In this document: in pieces, positions 20,701 through 24,713 of the stretch
Numbering within the stretch: the stretch's first letter is position 1
Layout: the number at the start of each line of letters is the position of its first letter
Virus record (IMG/VR): IMGVR_UViG_2563366822_000008
Source: a virus
Lineage: Duplodnaviria > Heunggongvirae > Uroviricota > Caudoviricetes
Length of the DNA stretch: 24,713 nucleotides
Strand: one strand, 5' to 3'
The notes under the pieces: generated by a model
The model's database searches: none
What the model saw: the letters and a program-made list of their open reading frames with translations, nothing else
What the model was told of the DNA's origin: nothing
Made by a program: the position numbers and the translations under genes

Positions 20701-20831
20701 TCGGTATTGGTGCTCATACGCACTCCGTTGCGATTGGTTCACATGGACACACCATCACCGTTAACGCTGCTGGTAACGCGGAAAACACCGTCAAAAACAT
20801 CGCATTTAACTATATTGTGAGGCTTGCATAA
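17757..20831 (+). CDS. stf: Side tail fibre protein Stf (about 1024 aa)
   Basis: N-terminus [26 protein letters not shown]... and the His-rich C-terminus (GAHTHS...[28 protein letters not shown]...[11 protein letters not shown]) match lambda Stf as recalled. Long Ala/Ser/Thr-rich centre. The GTG at 17751 offered by the track is less likely than ATG 17757. Confidence 0.85.
19150..19370 (+). repeat. Two tandem copies of a tail-fibre repeat unit (KGI[VI][21 protein letters not shown]) within stf
   Basis: Direct repeat seen at both protein and DNA level, first copy about 19150-19240 and second copy about 19280-19370, diverged at synonymous and some replacement sites. Confidence 0.8.
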
Positions 20832-21406
20832 TGGCATTCAGAATGAGTGAACAACCACGGACCATAAAAATTTATAATCTGCTGGCCGGAACTAATGAAT
20901 TTATTGGTGAAGGTGATGCATATATTCCGCCTCATACAGGTCTGCCAGCAAACAGTACCGATATTGCACCGCCAGATATTCCGGCTGGTTTCGTGGCTGT
21001 TTTCAACAGTGATGAGTCATCGTGGCATCTCGTTGAAGATCATCGGGGTAAAACGGTTTATGACGTGGCTTCCGGCGACGCGTTATTTATTTCTGAACTC
21101 GGTCCGTTACCGGAAAATGTTACCTGGTTATCGCCGGAAGGGGAGTTTCAGAAGTGGAACGGCACAGCCTGGGTGAAGGATACGGAAGCAGAAAAACTGT
21201 TCCGGATCCGGGAGGCGGAAGAAACAAAAAACAACCTGATGCAGGTAGCCAGTGAGCATATTGCGCCGCTTCAGGATGCTGCAGATCTGGAAATTGCAAC
21301 GGAGGAAGAAATCTCGTTGCTGGAAGCATGGAAAAAGTATCGGGTATTGCTGAACCGTGTTGATACGTCAACTGCACAGGATATTGAATGGCCAGCACTG
21401 CCGTAG
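20831..21406 (+). CDS. tfa: Tail fibre assembly protein Tfa
   Basis: 191 aa, near-identical by eye to lambda Tfa ([39 protein letters not shown]...). Start overlaps the stf stop (TAATG). Confidence 0.9.
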
Positions 21407-21482: not shown

Positions 21483-21505
21483 ATCTCACACCGAGATTAT
21501 TTTTT
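21483..21505. terminator. Short hairpin plus T-tract at the convergent tfa / recombinase junction
   Basis: ATCTC-ACACC-GAGAT (21483-21497) followed by TATTTTTTAT. Weak 5-bp stem; the T-tract overlaps the recombinase stop codon. Confidence 0.3.
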
Positions 21506-22094
21506 ATATGTCAGGTGTCTGAAGTTTTGCTTTGGCTCTTAAAATGGTTTGCCGCGAGGTTTTGAATTCCCGGGCAATGGCACTTATACTTACACCTGAC
21601 TTAATTCGTTCGAATACCGCCTGTTTCTGTTCTTCATTTAACACAGGTGGTCGACCAAAACGTTTCCCTGCGCCGCGGGCTCTTACTATCCCGGAATGAG
21701 TGCGTTCAAGTAAAAGGTCTCGTTCAAATTCAGCGACTGCTGAAATTACTTGCATCATCATTTTTCCTGTTGGACTGGTCAGGTCAATGCCCCCCAATGC
21801 TAAGCAATGCACTCTGATACCTGTTTCGGTCAGTTGTTCCACTGTTTTCCTGATATCCATTGCATTACAACCAAGGCGATCCAGTTTTGTCACAATCAAT
21901 TGATCACCACATTTCAGGCGAGCAAGCAACCGGTTAAAACCAGGACGCTCACTGGTTGCTGCTGAGCCGCTAATGTGTTCTTCGATTATTTGCTGAGGTT
22001 TGATTTTAAAACCTGCACTTTCGATTTCCCGGCGTTGATTTTCGGTGGTCTGATCCAGCGTTGATATCCGACAGTAAGCAAAAATTCGAGACAT
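21504..22094 (-). CDS. pinQ: Serine recombinase (resolvase/invertase family), Pin-like
   Basis: 196 aa. N-terminal catalytic region with the nucleophile in YCRISTLDQ, and a C-terminal helix-turn-helix ([17 protein letters not shown]). The specific symbol is assigned from gene order (tfa-pin-small gene-MFS) and is uncertain; the family call is firm. Confidence 0.85.
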
Positions 22095-22231
22095 AGTGAG
22101 ACTCTATACGAAATTGGTGTTCATATCATAATGCATCTCAGAAAATAATTATGATTATTTTTGTGCATATTTGTATGTACACGTTCGAAAATAAACGAAT
22201 GCGTATGCAACTCCGTAATTTTGGTGAAACC

Positions 22232-22245
22232 CAAAATCGATTTTG
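22232..22245. promoter_or_regulatory. 14-bp perfect palindrome CAAAATCGATTTTG upstream of the recombinase gene
   Basis: Read directly; about 140 bp upstream of the pin start codon on the template side. A second inverted repeat AACTCG-N10-CGAGTT lies at 22260-22281. Confidence 0.3.
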
Positions 22246-22410
22246 TGAAAAATGGCTTTAACTCGGTTTGCTTTTCGAGTTCCGGGCGGACTCAAGGAAG
22301 AAGAATAGTGTTGCGTGTTATTTTAACCAGATTTCAAGTTGTTTGGTCGTGGAAAAGTGGAGCAAAATGTTGTTAAAGTGGAGAAATGATAAAAAAGTAA
22401 GTTTATTATA

Positions 22411-22644
22411 TTACATTTTACCATTTAAATTTTGGTTGTCTTTAAGAACTGATATCGCTGTTTGTAATAATTCTTTGTTATCCAGCCATGATTTTTTCTT
22501 TATGTTTCCTTCAATGTAATCAAGCAATGTTCTGGTATTGATAGGTCTTCCCTGTTTTGCTACTTCCACTACAGCATCCCCTAGGATAATTCTTACTTCA
22601 GGAAGCTGCGCAGGGAACCACTTTAGGGTGTCTTTTGATTTCAT
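22411..22644 (-). CDS. ydfK: Small prophage protein, YdfK/YnaE-like (77 aa)
   Basis: The ORF lies in an AT-rich segment. The internal ATG at 22644 has an AGGA RBS 8-9 nt upstream and gives 77 aa (MKSKDTLKWFPAQLPEV...); the track's longer 88-aa start at 22677 lacks an RBS. Naming rests on size and locus synteny recalled from E. coli K-12, not on a search. Confidence 0.5.
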   Translation of the reverse strand: MKSKDTLKWFPAQLPEVRIILGDAVVEVAKQGRPINTRTLLDYIEGNIKKKSWLDNKELLQTAISVLKDNQNLNGKM

Positions 22645-23150
22645 GAAGATATTCCTTAAAATATTATTGATTTTCATTGCGATATTGTATGTCTGATTCA
22701 GGATATGTTGACTTATACATCGGTTTTGTCTGGGTTATTGGATATGCCAATCCCTAATTTTATTAGGGCATGACTAAAAATGCTGAATATGATAAGGAGA
22801 GATGTGATTATCAGTATGCTGTTCATATAGCCTCGAATTAGTAATGTGTTATATATGATATAGTTGACAATTTTTATCTTGGGTGTTCTTAAAGTTCGTA
22901 AATAAACATTGTCGTTTCAGGTATACAGGAATGCTAACAGGTGGCAGCAAAAATCAGGCGGTTTATGGCGCAAGCTGAAGCGGCAACTGCAAACTATCTT
23001 ATGCAGAGACTCTACACGGATTGGGTTTAAAAGTATACATAGATAACAGTTTTTATCTGAAAAAGAAAAATATCAAGGTGATATAGCCTATATGCCTTTG
23101 ATGCGGAGGAATGAATGTGATGGGAGTGATGTATCTGAATAGTTGAAAAA

Positions 23151-23184
23151 CCGCAGACACGCCTTATGCAAGAACGTGCTGCGG
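23151..23184 (-). terminator. Hairpin followed by a T5 run on the - strand (candidate minus-strand terminator or leader structure)
   Basis: CCGCAG(A)CACG-N13-CGTGCTGCGG, a 10-bp stem with one bulge. On the - strand it is followed immediately by TTTTT (the + strand reads AAAAA at 23146-23150). Confidence 0.4.
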
Positions 23185-23429
23185 TTGGCTGGTAAATTTT
23201 TCGATAGTGTGAGTATTGAATGATTTCCAGCCGTTCTTGATTTTACGCATAAATCCATGAAAAAACTACTTATCTGTTGGGGAGTTTTTTTGGGGCATAT
23301 ATGGGACAGAAATAGGCCCCAGATAGACACTGAGATCGAACTTAGGATGCTTTTTAAAAAATGCAACTATCTGAAAAAACCTAGAAAACGCCAAGGAAAC
23401 CACAGGATGGGAAAAAACACCTGTGAATT

Positions 23430-24713
23430 ATGGATTTCCAGTTATATTCGCTCGGCGCAGCGTTGGTGTTTCATGAAATATTTTTTCCTGAATCATCAAC
23501 GGCAATGGCGTTAATTTTGGCAATGGGAACCTACGGTGCAGGTTATGTGGCGCGTATTGTCGGAGCATTTATTTTCGGCAAAATGGGCGACAGAATAGGG
23601 CGTAAAAAAGTGCTCTTTATTACCATCACCATGATGGGGATCTGTACCACCTTAATTGGTGTGTTACCGACCTATGCACAGATTGGTGTTTTTGCCCCCA
23701 TCTTGCTGGTGACGCTGCGTATTATTCAGGGGTTGGGTGCAGGTGCGGAAATTTCCGGTGCCGGTACGATGCTGGCGGAATATGCACCAAAAGGTAAGCG
23801 CGGAATTATCTCCTCATTTGTAGCTATGGGAACTAACTGCGGAACCTTGAGCGCAACGGCAATCTGGGCCTTTATGTTCTTCATTCTCAGTAAAGAGGAA
23901 CTGCTGGCGTGGGGATGGCGTATACCGTTCCTGGCGAGCGTTGTCGTGATGGTCTTTGCTATCTGGTTACGTATGAATCTGAAAGAAAGCCCGGTCTTTG
24001 AGAAGGTTAATGACAGCAACCAACCCACAGCAAAACCTGCACCTGCTGGTAGCATGTTCCAGAGCAAATCCTTCTGGCTGGCAACAGGGCTGCGTTTTGG
24101 TCAGGCGGGTAACTCCGGGTTAATTCAGACTTTCCTTGCAGGCTATTTAGTGCAGACGTTATTGTTTAACAAAGCAATTCCAACAGATGCATTGATGATT
24201 AGTTTGATTCTCGGCTTTATGACCATTCCGTTCCTTGGTTGGTTATCCGATAAAATTGGTCGCCGGATCCCGTATATTATTATGAATACCTCCGCGATTG
24301 TGCTGGCATGGCCAATGCTTTCTATCATTGTAGATAAAAGCTATGCCCCGAGCACCATTATGGTTGCACTGATTGTGATTCATAACTGTGCGGTGCTGGG
24401 ATTATTTGCTCTGGAAAACATTACCATGGCAGAAATGTTCGGCTGTAAAAACCGCTTTACCCGGATGGCTATTTCTAAAGAAATTGGTGGTCTTATCGCT
24501 TCCGGTTTTGGTCCTATCCTGGCGGGTATTTTCTGCACCATGACGGAATCCTGGTATCCGATCGCCATTATGATCATGGCATATTCAGTAATTGGTTTAA
24601 TCTCTGCGCTGAAAATGCCAGAGGTGAAAGACCGTGATTTAAGTGCGCTGGAAGACGCTGCGGAAGATCAACCGCGTGTTGTAAGAGCTGCGCAACCTTC
24701 CAGAAGTCTGTAA
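23430..24713 (+). CDS. ydfJ: MFS transporter (metabolite:H+ symporter-like), N-terminally truncated; candidate host gene interrupted by the prophage
   Basis: 427 aa with multiple hydrophobic helices and the MFS signature GKMGDRIGRKK after the first helix present. In intact family members this motif follows TM2, so about one helix plus the N-terminus appears to be missing. The symbol is a context-based guess. Confidence 0.8.
   Translation: MDFQLYSLGAALVFHEIFFPESSTAMALILAMGTYGAGYVARIVGAFIFGKMGDRIGRKKVLFITITMMGICTTLIGVLPTYAQIGVFAPILLVTLRIIQGLGAGAEISGAGTMLAEYAPKGKRGIISSFVAMGTNCGTLSATAIWAFMFFILSKEELLAWGWRIPFLASVVVMVFAIWLRMNLKESPVFEKVNDSNQPTAKPAPAGSMFQSKSFWLATGLRFGQAGNSGLIQTFLAGYLVQTLLFNKAIPTDALMISLILGFMTIPFLGWLSDKIGRRIPYIIMNTSAIVLAWPMLSIIVDKSYAPSTIMVALIVIHNCAVLGLFALENITMAEMFGCKNRFTRMAISKEIGGLIASGFGPILAGIFCTMTESWYPIAIMIMAYSVIGLISALKMPEVKDRDLSALEDAAEDQPRVVRAAQPSRSL

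Follow-up and report, generated by a model that had tools for sequence, protein, structure and literature searches.

A conserved, hairpin-bearing cassette at the mosaic end of a lambdoid prophage integrated in ydfJ

Introduction

What occupies an AT-rich interval of 785 bp in which no large gene is found, at the end of a phage sequence that is otherwise packed with genes? The question arises at positions 22645–23429 of a stretch of DNA of 24,713 nucleotides (hereafter the window, by which we mean the whole stretch) from a member of the Caudoviricetes (IMG/VR virus record IMGVR_UViG_2563366822_000008). The interval has a GC-content of 0.366, compared to 0.528 for the whole window and 0.545 for the morphogenesis genes; as an initial annotation made from the letters alone had stated, it is both AT-rich and the longest stretch lacking a large gene, the window being otherwise packed from 149 to 22644. 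That annotation treated the interval as a single object and offered three readings of it: a long structured 5' leader of the small gene ydfK, a small RNA (sRNA), or the attachment (att) site region of a prophage. Each of these fits a part of the interval only. Homology indicates that it is the right end of a lambdoid prophage of the Qin/mEp460/Tritos type integrated in ydfJ, and that it is a mosaic rather than one element; all of its functional parts are on the minus strand. Most of these parts are ordinary and already annotated (the small-protein gene ynfT, the junction attR, the remnant of a gene). The hairpin on which the initial annotation had remarked is, judging by homology, the 3' half of a cassette of approximately 100 nt, and it is this cassette alone that exceeds current annotation; the novelty is to that extent modest.

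Results

A hairpin under structural selection

The cassette and its hairpin have the following coordinates:

23144–23246, minus strand: conserved lambdoid element of about 100 nt (covariance model R1, 100.9 bits)
23149–23186 (core 23151–23184), minus strand: hairpin resembling an intrinsic terminator, with a T-run at 23146–23150

The minus-strand hairpin and T5 that had been noted at 23151–23184 withstand closer analysis. The structure is predicted to fold with a free energy of -20.7 kcal/mol (z = -3.9), and none of 200 shuffled sequences folds as well. In the stem, CCGCAGCACG (23184–23175) pairs with CGUGUCUGCGG (23161–23151), leaving one bulged U; pairing extends to 23149–23186, and the run UUUUU follows directly on its 3' side (UUUUUC with the next base).

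Covariance had been named at the outset as a means of judging the interval. With a covariance model, 115 matches were aligned. Both sides have changed in ten of the 11 pairs of the hairpin; the proportion of paired cells is 93.1%, compared to 88.0% in shuffles. The observed measures of pairing were reached by none of 500 shuffles and by no slid control, in an alignment that leans towards the structure, being fitted to the model; independent folds of single sequences agree with it. RNAalifold, run on a MAFFT alignment, did not recover the hairpin because insertions and deletions misaligned the 3' arm, a difficulty that the covariance-model alignment resolved. The 64 distinct full-length copies fall into 36 stem haplotypes and include a case in which the loop is replaced completely. 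On the minus strand G-U pairs number 43 and A-C mismatches 29. Together these data point to clear structural selection on the hairpin. It is also found without the remainder of the cassette, both in the Rac prophage and downstream of lambda ea47. No entry for the genes of this locus was found in PMC7815308.

Structure and constraint of the cassette

Homology to the cassette starts sharply at GTAAAATC and stops at the 3' foot of the hairpin. Read in order, the cassette comprises TAnAAT, approximately eight variable nucleotides, GGCUGG, the loop AAAUCAUUCAAUACUCGCACUAUCGAAAGUUCA, CCAGCC, the 12-bp hairpin and, in the window, U5. The 5' boundary, TAnAAT, varies at its third position only, and the first stem (GGCUGG/CCAGCC) encloses a near-invariant loop, AAAUCAUUCAAUACUCRCACUAUCGAAA. 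The window cassette is predicted to fold at -34.3 kcal/mol (z = -5.25), and a fold of 23140–23250 gives two separate hairpins of 10–13 bp and no long duplex. Among close members the first stem shows one-sided, disruptive changes only; a single compensatory change (GACUGG/CCAGUC) is present in Citrobacter phage Chris1.

How strongly is the sequence constrained? In alignments with the prophage of Escherichia coli O157 and with phage 2H10, the segment from the stop codon of dinI to the hairpin is the best-conserved part. Nucleotide diversity in the core, outside the search pattern, is 0.054, compared to 0.125 at the third-codon positions of dinI. Since the core lies only approximately 2.3-fold below the dinI third positions, much of its 'invariance' reflects shallow divergence and the search pattern, and these figures suggest a constraint that is moderate, not extreme. 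The possibility that the cassette is coding sequence was ruled out by a 1-nt indel in the Qin type and by variation without 3-nt periodicity. A search within lambda and the window for complementarity to the conserved core gave chance-level matches only, of no more than 10 nt.

Distribution and genomic position of the cassette

A BLAST search with 23135–23262 as query finds the cassette in at least 210 phage records, including those of lambda, HK97 and Shiga toxin (Stx)-converting phages, and also in O157 prophages; at least 120 IMG/VR stretches carry it. More diverged members are present in Citrobacter phage Chris1, mEp234 and 2G7a. In a pattern scan of one genome per species the element was found only in Escherichia and Shigella, low-coverage contigs aside. 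Copies in well-known genomes are as follows:

lambda, 24155–24256, l strand: between ea31 and ea47
HK97, 20943–21041: immediately after the annotated sib site (21042–21091)
HK633: directly after int, the same 81 bp being annotated as attP
E. coli K-12, 1,632,470–1,632,572, plus strand: full copy
E. coli K-12, 304,210–304,310, minus strand: second full copy, between ecpE and ykgJ

The position of the cassette follows a rule. In 167 copies, all upstream neighbours identified within 700 nt are co-oriented with it (dinI 59, ea31 14, int 13), and on the downstream side lie either convergent genes (tfa 28, pin 12) or a new co-oriented module (ynfT 31, ykgJ 20, ea47 12). By gene order, a leftward transcription unit has the cassette at its 3' end in the sampled copies. 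Mosaic joints fall at both of its ends: similarity to Rac-type loci runs as far as 23188, and that to other ydfJ prophages starts at 23165.

The records of lambda, HK97, Tritos, HannyBb and 2H10 leave the cassette unannotated, permissive scans of the region and of homologous loci found no Rfam family for it, and literature searches, including those with the literal sequence, found nothing relevant. It is apparently undescribed so far.

Some individual copies are of interest in their own right. The annotated attP of HK633 (JQ086377.1 20680–20760), assigned by similarity to the K-12 ykgJ–yagV spacer, coincides exactly with the cassette; because phages whose integrases and att sites are unrelated also have the cassette, the assignment is probably wrong. 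The K-12 yagU–ykgJ–ecpE region (303,600–304,320) contains a tfa remnant (IS009), ykgJ where ydfK or pin sit elsewhere, the cassette, and a decayed dinI 3' end, and looks like a lambdoid prophage scar. The notion that the ykgJ–ecpE copy is a host sRNA gene was rejected on the strength of this setting, in a scar beside the tfa remnant (IS009/EcsR2) and the decayed dinI 3' end. A degenerate second copy in lambda (22566–22658, l strand, 29 bits), located in the gap where ea47 and orf-194 converge, retains CAAUACUCGC as well as the hairpin. The lambda copy is found, in addition, on very-low-coverage contigs of 48.4–48.5 kb in assemblies of Pseudomonas and Shewanella, and on short low-coverage contigs in Streptomyces, Enterococcus and others; such contigs look like lambda DNA contamination of public assemblies.

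The attachment site

Where does the prophage end and the chromosome begin? Four features define the junction:

23424–23438, no strand assigned: att core (crossover region) TGAATTATGGATTTC, from a three-way comparison of the phage site (attP), the chromosomal site (attB) and the window
23247–23423, plus strand: phage P arm, 85% shared with other ydfJ-integrated prophages
23291–23297 and 23302–23308, plus strand: candidate arm-type integrase sites TGGGGCA and TGGGACA, in tandem, 11 bp apart
23430–24713, plus strand: ydfJ', the 3' part of a major facilitator superfamily transporter gene (RefSeq 'incomplete; missing N-terminus')

Alignment with an uninterrupted allele of the transporter gene, which the initial annotation had suggested as a way of placing the att core, puts it at 23424–23438. 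The sequence TGAATT(T)ATGGATTTC is common to the attP of phages Tritos and HannyBb, to intact ydfJ (attB, strain SM107) and to the window. Left of this core the window follows the phage and right of it the chromosome; genomes in which ydfJ carries no prophage have a match to the window from 23424 onward only. The annotated ATG of ydfJ' lies inside the core, and intact ydfJ in SM107 starts approximately 77 codons earlier. The boundary of K-12 Qin is annotated at the base equivalent to the core, and a published K-12 YnfP peptide, ...LEFMDFKSHAC (PMC6001520), spans the reciprocal junction on the far side of Qin. In Tritos and HannyBb, int is encoded on the minus strand, with its 3' end 46 nt past the stretch and xis behind it. 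Hence the int-distal arm (the P arm in lambda terminology) accounts for the 177 bp to the left of the core, and the junction is attR (P-O-B'). An att-site region is thus the correct description of the right-hand ~190 bp (core and P arm) and not of the rest of the interval.

The motif TGGGRCA occurs three times in the 24.7-kb window, where 8.8 occurrences are expected, and two of the three are in the P arm. On its int side, attP of Tritos carries another such pair, TGGGGCA-N4-TGGGGCA. The pairs are candidate arm-type integrase sites. A match to the IHF consensus WATCARNNNNTTR was found nowhere in the window. The att arm of Rac contains, just upstream of the hairpin on the minus strand, three copies of TTTTGCCCC within approximately 50 nt together with a fourth, TTTTTGCC; TTTTGCCCC is the reverse complement of a TGGGGCAAAA-like motif in the Qin-type arm, which suggests that the Rac and Qin-type integrases have related arm-type sites.

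A decayed dinI-like gene

Alignment with the O157 ydfJ prophage and with phage 2H10 identifies one further feature at this end:

23247–23300, minus strand: decayed dinI-like remnant

In the O157:H7 ydfJ prophage and in phage 2H10 an intact dinI-like gene of 80–82 codons lies between the att arm and the hairpin region. The window aligns on both sides of this gene, about 200 bp of which are missing. What remains is a diverged 3' end at about 23247–23277 (ACAGATAAGTAGTTTTTTCAT) and a start-codon stub, ATGCCCCA (23298–23291); from the ATG at 23298–23296 the stub extends for 10 codons, and there is no intact open reading frame (ORF) of ~80 codons. The comparison at the decayed 3' end is ACA GAT AAG TAG TTT TTT CAT versus GCT GAC GAG TGG TTT GTT CAC. 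An intermediate version of dinI is present in one IMG/VR contig, and the functional phages Tritos and HannyBb have the same deletion as the window. Inspection by eye found a LexA box upstream of dinI in phage 2H10 (CACTGTATACAAACACAGTG) and none in the O157 and Qin versions.

The DinI-like protein of the O157:H7 ydfJ prophage starts with MPHRYPAAKINK and not with the canonical MRIEICIAKEK, its start being read from the att-arm sequence ATGCCCCA. This ATGCCCCA start overlaps a candidate arm-type site, and the gene is without the LexA box of 2H10. The O157 gene may be 5'-truncated with a spurious start.

ynfT and the segment upstream of it

The left-hand part of the interval comprises the following features:

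22713–22826, minus strand: ynfT, encoding a 37-aa hydrophobic small protein of the YnaM/YnfT family (RefSeq annotation)
22831–22834, minus strand: ribosome-binding site of ynfT, GAGG, 4 nt before the ATG
22645–22712, minus strand: ynfT–ydfK spacer of 68 nt, containing the ydfK Shine-Dalgarno sequence AAGGA
22711–22684, minus strand: promoter-like TCAACA-16-TACAAT in the spacer, from a promoter scan
22827–23143, minus strand: non-coding segment upstream of ynfT, the probable promoter and 5' leader region of ynfT–ydfK
23061–23032, minus strand: candidate sigma-70 promoter TTCAGA-18-TATACT, from a scan, overlapping the inverted repeat AGATAA-N6-TTATCT

The interval had been described as apparently non-coding, and its short candidate ORFs were said to lack ribosome-binding sites. 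Both statements are contradicted by ynfT, which RefSeq annotates and which has GAGG in front of its ATG. Its product scores 63.9 bits against NCBIfam NF041477 (curated cut-off 35) and matches phrog_35882 with E = 3e-20. Comparison with the homologue in Salmonella phage 118970_sal3 shows 4/4/15 differences at the three codon positions, identity at 30 of 38 aligned positions (37 residues and the stop) and a Shine-Dalgarno sequence that is kept; on account of the codon-position differences and the conserved Shine-Dalgarno sequence, we conclude that ynfT changes in the manner of a coding sequence. In K-12, two proteins with the same sequence as the window protein, YnaM and YnfQ (now YnfT), were detected by chromosomal sequential peptide affinity (SPA) tagging (PMC6001520; bioRxiv 10.1101/511675).

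The interval has no ORF of 90 aa or more except a TTG-started frame of 92 aa (23088–23366, minus strand), which passes through the hairpin and matches no family in PHROGs or NCBIfam. The six candidate ORFs other than ynfT that were scanned have no PHROGs or NCBIfam match, and neither the three of them between 22849 and 23160 nor two further plus-strand frames (22883–22978 and 22941–23030) show codon-position bias in comparison with phage 2H10. The spacer hexamers TCAACA/TACAAT are not conserved in the corresponding spacer of Salmonella phage 118970_sal3, which suggests that co-transcription of ynfT and ydfK is the more general arrangement. A locus search with YdfK returned only copies that are 100% identical, and hence no divergence.

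The segment 22827–23143 is 99% identical between Qin-type loci and Rac-type loci, where it lies upstream of ynaM. Transcription from the candidate promoter within it is predicted to start near 23025, which would give a leader of ~200 nt before ynfT and ~380 nt before ydfK. The promoter site differs from its 2H10-type homologue only at one spacer position, while the ~330 nt compared contain 43 differences in all; its neighbours vary more. The likely content of the segment, from these comparisons, is a plain promoter and leader for a ynfT–ydfK operon.

Could the whole interval, or its left 500 bp, be a long cold-responsive 5' leader of ydfK instead? Cold induction of ydfK and ynaE is reported (PMC10654059; PMC7430671), leader-derived ydfK/ynaE transcripts are likewise reported (PMC5089854; PMC4152368), and the conserved promoter-like site would indeed yield a leader. 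We nonetheless regard this explanation as improbable. The candidate leader (23027–22815) shows no excess of structure, folding no better than shuffles (z = -0.03); with E values of up to 10 allowed, it matches no Rfam family, the cspA-type thermosensor (RF01766) included; and a translated gene, ynfT, occupies the supposed ydfK leader, between the rest of the stretch and ydfK. These results tell against the long structured leader of the initial annotation. In addition, Salmonella phage 118970_sal3 keeps ynfT–ydfK without 22880–23150, and the hairpin cannot belong to the candidate leader because it is upstream of the sole conserved promoter-like site.

Prophage context and neighbouring features

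Lambda-like morphogenesis genes are packed over 149–21406 of the window and are followed by pin (21504–22094, minus strand), ydfK (22411–22644, minus strand) and the 785-bp interval, to the right of which the ORF from 23430 continues to the end of the window. The RefSeq genes across the region are ydfK, ynfT and the 5'-truncated ydfJ. A megablast search of complete genomes found at least 80% of the region 22400–23500 in a total of 2017 E. coli genomes. The whole 785 bp are present in phages mEp460_ev081, PhiR42_1, HannyBb and Tritos at 98–99.6% identity. The K-12 counterpart of the interval is the left boundary of the cryptic prophage Qin, and the source of the window is a fuller prophage of the same type.

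Two neighbouring regions deserve mention. A second AT-rich gap, of 316 bp and with a GC-content of about 0.35, lies at 22095–22410 between pin and ydfK, and may hold the pin promoter or an inversion crossover site. The 3' end (21174–21372, plus strand) of a tfaQ-like tail-fibre-assembly gene (20831–21406) matches Rfam IS009 with 220.9 bits (threshold 117). IS009 also matches lambda orf-194, Rac tfaR and the K-12 yagU–ykgJ spacer, in which the sRNA EcsR2 was described (PMC4350180); the IS009 'RNA family' is essentially a tfa coding fragment.

Discussion

Function of the cassette

The minus strand of the free phage gives some indication of what the cassette may do. The order along it is the pL operon, xis, int, attP, dinI (deleted here), the cassette of ~100 nt, ~320 nt of non-coding sequence, ynfT, ydfK and pin. 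We think it probable that the cassette, found here at the mosaic end of a lambdoid prophage in ydfJ, is a reusable 3'-end module, which closes the leftward transcription unit and insulates ynfT–ydfK–pin from it. The cassette would close the leftward accessory unit whichever gene comes last (dinI mostly, int/sib or ea31 too). RNA polymerase without antitermination modification would stop at the hairpin and U-tract, and the hairpin would give the upstream mRNAs a stable, structured 3' end. Read-through into ynfT–ydfK–pin would be blocked, that module being driven by its own promoter region (candidate 23061–23032). On integration, int and the pL operon come to lie at the opposite prophage end, which leaves the cassette here without an upstream gene; its role in the integrated state would go no further than insulating against transcription that comes in across the ydfJ junction.

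Several observations sit uneasily with this explanation. The hairpin was passed over by a simple terminator scan on account of its bulge and its loop of 9–11 nt. A T-run of four or more follows the hairpin in only 34 of 64 distinct copies, and the lambda copy has none (CUCUACC); termination therefore cannot be the sole reason for which the hairpin is retained. Since a plain terminator needs no ~60 conserved nucleotides upstream of it, termination is arguably not the whole story, and the 26-nt core of the loop is unchanged in the most diverged copies (Chris1, mEp234 and 2G7a). One exception is formed by mEp234, whose annotation shows no co-oriented gene upstream of the cassette and places int on the other strand.

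It is possible, although we put it forward tentatively, that the ~100-nt element is itself a functional RNA: an sRNA embedded in a 3' untranslated region (UTR) or made by read-through, or an RNA–protein module, the 26-nt loop AAUCAUUCAAUACUCGCACUAUCGAA of which pairs with a target or binds a factor. Such a function would add to termination and not replace it. With equal reserve, we can envisage the cassette as an undescribed functional RNA that lambda, too, would carry in its b region and that would be made as the 3' tail of transcripts of int, dinI or ea genes; its loop would act in trans on an RNA of host or phage, or serve as a protein site. The two-hairpin architecture, with its low z score, is in keeping with such a role, as are the constancy of the 26-nt loop beside a hairpin whose stem covaries and whose own loop has even been exchanged, the compensatory change in the first stem of Chris1, and the ratio of G-U pairs to A-C mismatches on the minus strand; yet the first stem of close members changes on one side only, and disruptively, and the core is less diverse than dinI third positions by a small factor only. 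The 5' TAnAAT varies in the manner of a -10 hexamer, but there is no -35 in any upstream context and the scan gave no promoter there. Hfq-bound RNAs named '5'UTR-ydfK' and 'ttcC-ynaE' have been reported (PMC4152368), and PMC5089854, citing Raghavan 2011, refers to 'prematurely terminated' leader transcripts of ydfK and ynaE; the hairpin is the sole clear terminator-like structure common to Qin and Rac upstream of ydfK/ynaE, the simple scan having also listed a weak site of six pairs at 23335–23317. However, since Rac shares the hairpin only, the reported ynaE RNA cannot be this element. The U-tail, moreover, is short (five U) or absent in half of the copies, and neither an Rfam family nor, in the literature searched, an experimental RNA is linked to the element. 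The sRNA option of the initial annotation may hold for this element: the hairpin does belong to a conserved element of ~100 nt with an sRNA-like architecture, but one with no recognisable -35 and always in a 3'-UTR position.

Two further explanations grant the hairpin either a more specific function or none. As a functional analogue of lambda sib/tI, it would provide stable ends for pI transcripts, whereas int mRNA carried by antiterminated pL transcripts would decay, with RNase III making the first cut. In Tritos and HannyBb int stops about 46 nt from the core, the hairpin lies 240–280 nt beyond the core on the int strand, and integration does separate the hairpin from int; however, sib is a separate feature in HK97, with the element directly adjoining it, the lambda element is ~3.3 kb from sib, past ea59 and ea31, and most copies of the element are separated from att by dinI. 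Lambda sib, furthermore, forms an RNase III substrate longer than 12–13 bp, which is all that the stem here attains. We consider this analogy decidedly unlikely. The other explanation, that the cassette is a terminator relic without further function, a linker at a module boundary kept by homologous recombination among lambdoid phages, strikes us as unlikely too. Mosaic breakpoints do fall exactly at both ends of the cassette, its core is only moderately constrained in comparison with synonymous sites, and the element is confined to phages of Escherichia and Shigella and a few close relatives. Against this, pairing of the hairpin survives many independent double substitutions and a complete swap of the loop, which argues for selection on structure; the loop of the first stem is retained in the most diverged copies; and strand and 3'-UTR position do not vary. 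A reusable 3'-end module is the explanation that we favor.

Significance

For the purposes of annotation the stretch is no longer a mystery, being composed of a small-protein gene, a probable terminator, a gene remnant and attR. The cassette is a sharply bounded module, reused across lambda, HK97, Stx phages, O157 prophages and the cryptic prophages of K-12, at the joint of the integration/accessory region and the tail-fibre region. Should it prove to be a terminator only, it still serves as a useful marker of mosaic joints and of the ends of prophages, and accounts for the probable mis-annotation of an attP. If the conserved loop has an RNA function, then lambda carries an overlooked regulatory RNA, which can be tested with standard strains.

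Comparison with known systems

One of the closest parallels is lambda tI/sib. In both cases a hairpin lies on the int strand a few hundred nucleotides beyond attP, in the arm on the b-region side, integration splits it from int, and it can, or in the case of the cassette could, end leftward transcripts that are not antiterminated. There is, however, no sequence relation between them, the stem of the element is short, and the element usually follows dinI or ea31 and not int. HK97 and lambda carry sib and the element separately, and on this ground the identification of the element with sib was rejected. Terminators of the moron type likewise close an accessory gene (here dinI, ea31 or ea47) with a terminator-like hairpin and mark a mosaic joint; unlike them, the element has ~60 additional conserved nucleotides with a near-invariant loop of 26 nt, and half of its copies are without a U-tract.

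PMC8144298 describes sRNAs located between the dual terminators of rrn operons, which are of the 3'-UTR/read-through type. The element resembles these in being a short structured segment that follows a first terminator (in HK97, directly after tI/sib), has its own end hairpin and lacks a -35, and differs from them in that it is known here from sequence alone. The Shigella chromosomal sRNA CssrB (Rfam RF02799) belongs to the same hairpin sequence family (ACCGCAGCACG...CGUGCUGCGG), but the match in the window is on the opposite (plus) strand and scores 25.3 bits against a gathering threshold of 76. That the element is CssrB was rejected: in strain ECMA0423 a genuine CssrB (230 bits) is found ~1 kb away and shares only an antisense, hairpin-only copy.

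A close relative of the locus is the ynaM–ynaE end of Rac in K-12. Although Rac is without the conserved 5' half of 60 nt, and possesses an att arm of its own, in which TTTTGCCCC is repeated, as well as a ttcC remnant, it shares 99% identity with the window from ydfK/ynaE through ynfT/ynaM to the hairpin (window 22400–23188), with the same pair of genes and the same terminator hairpin.

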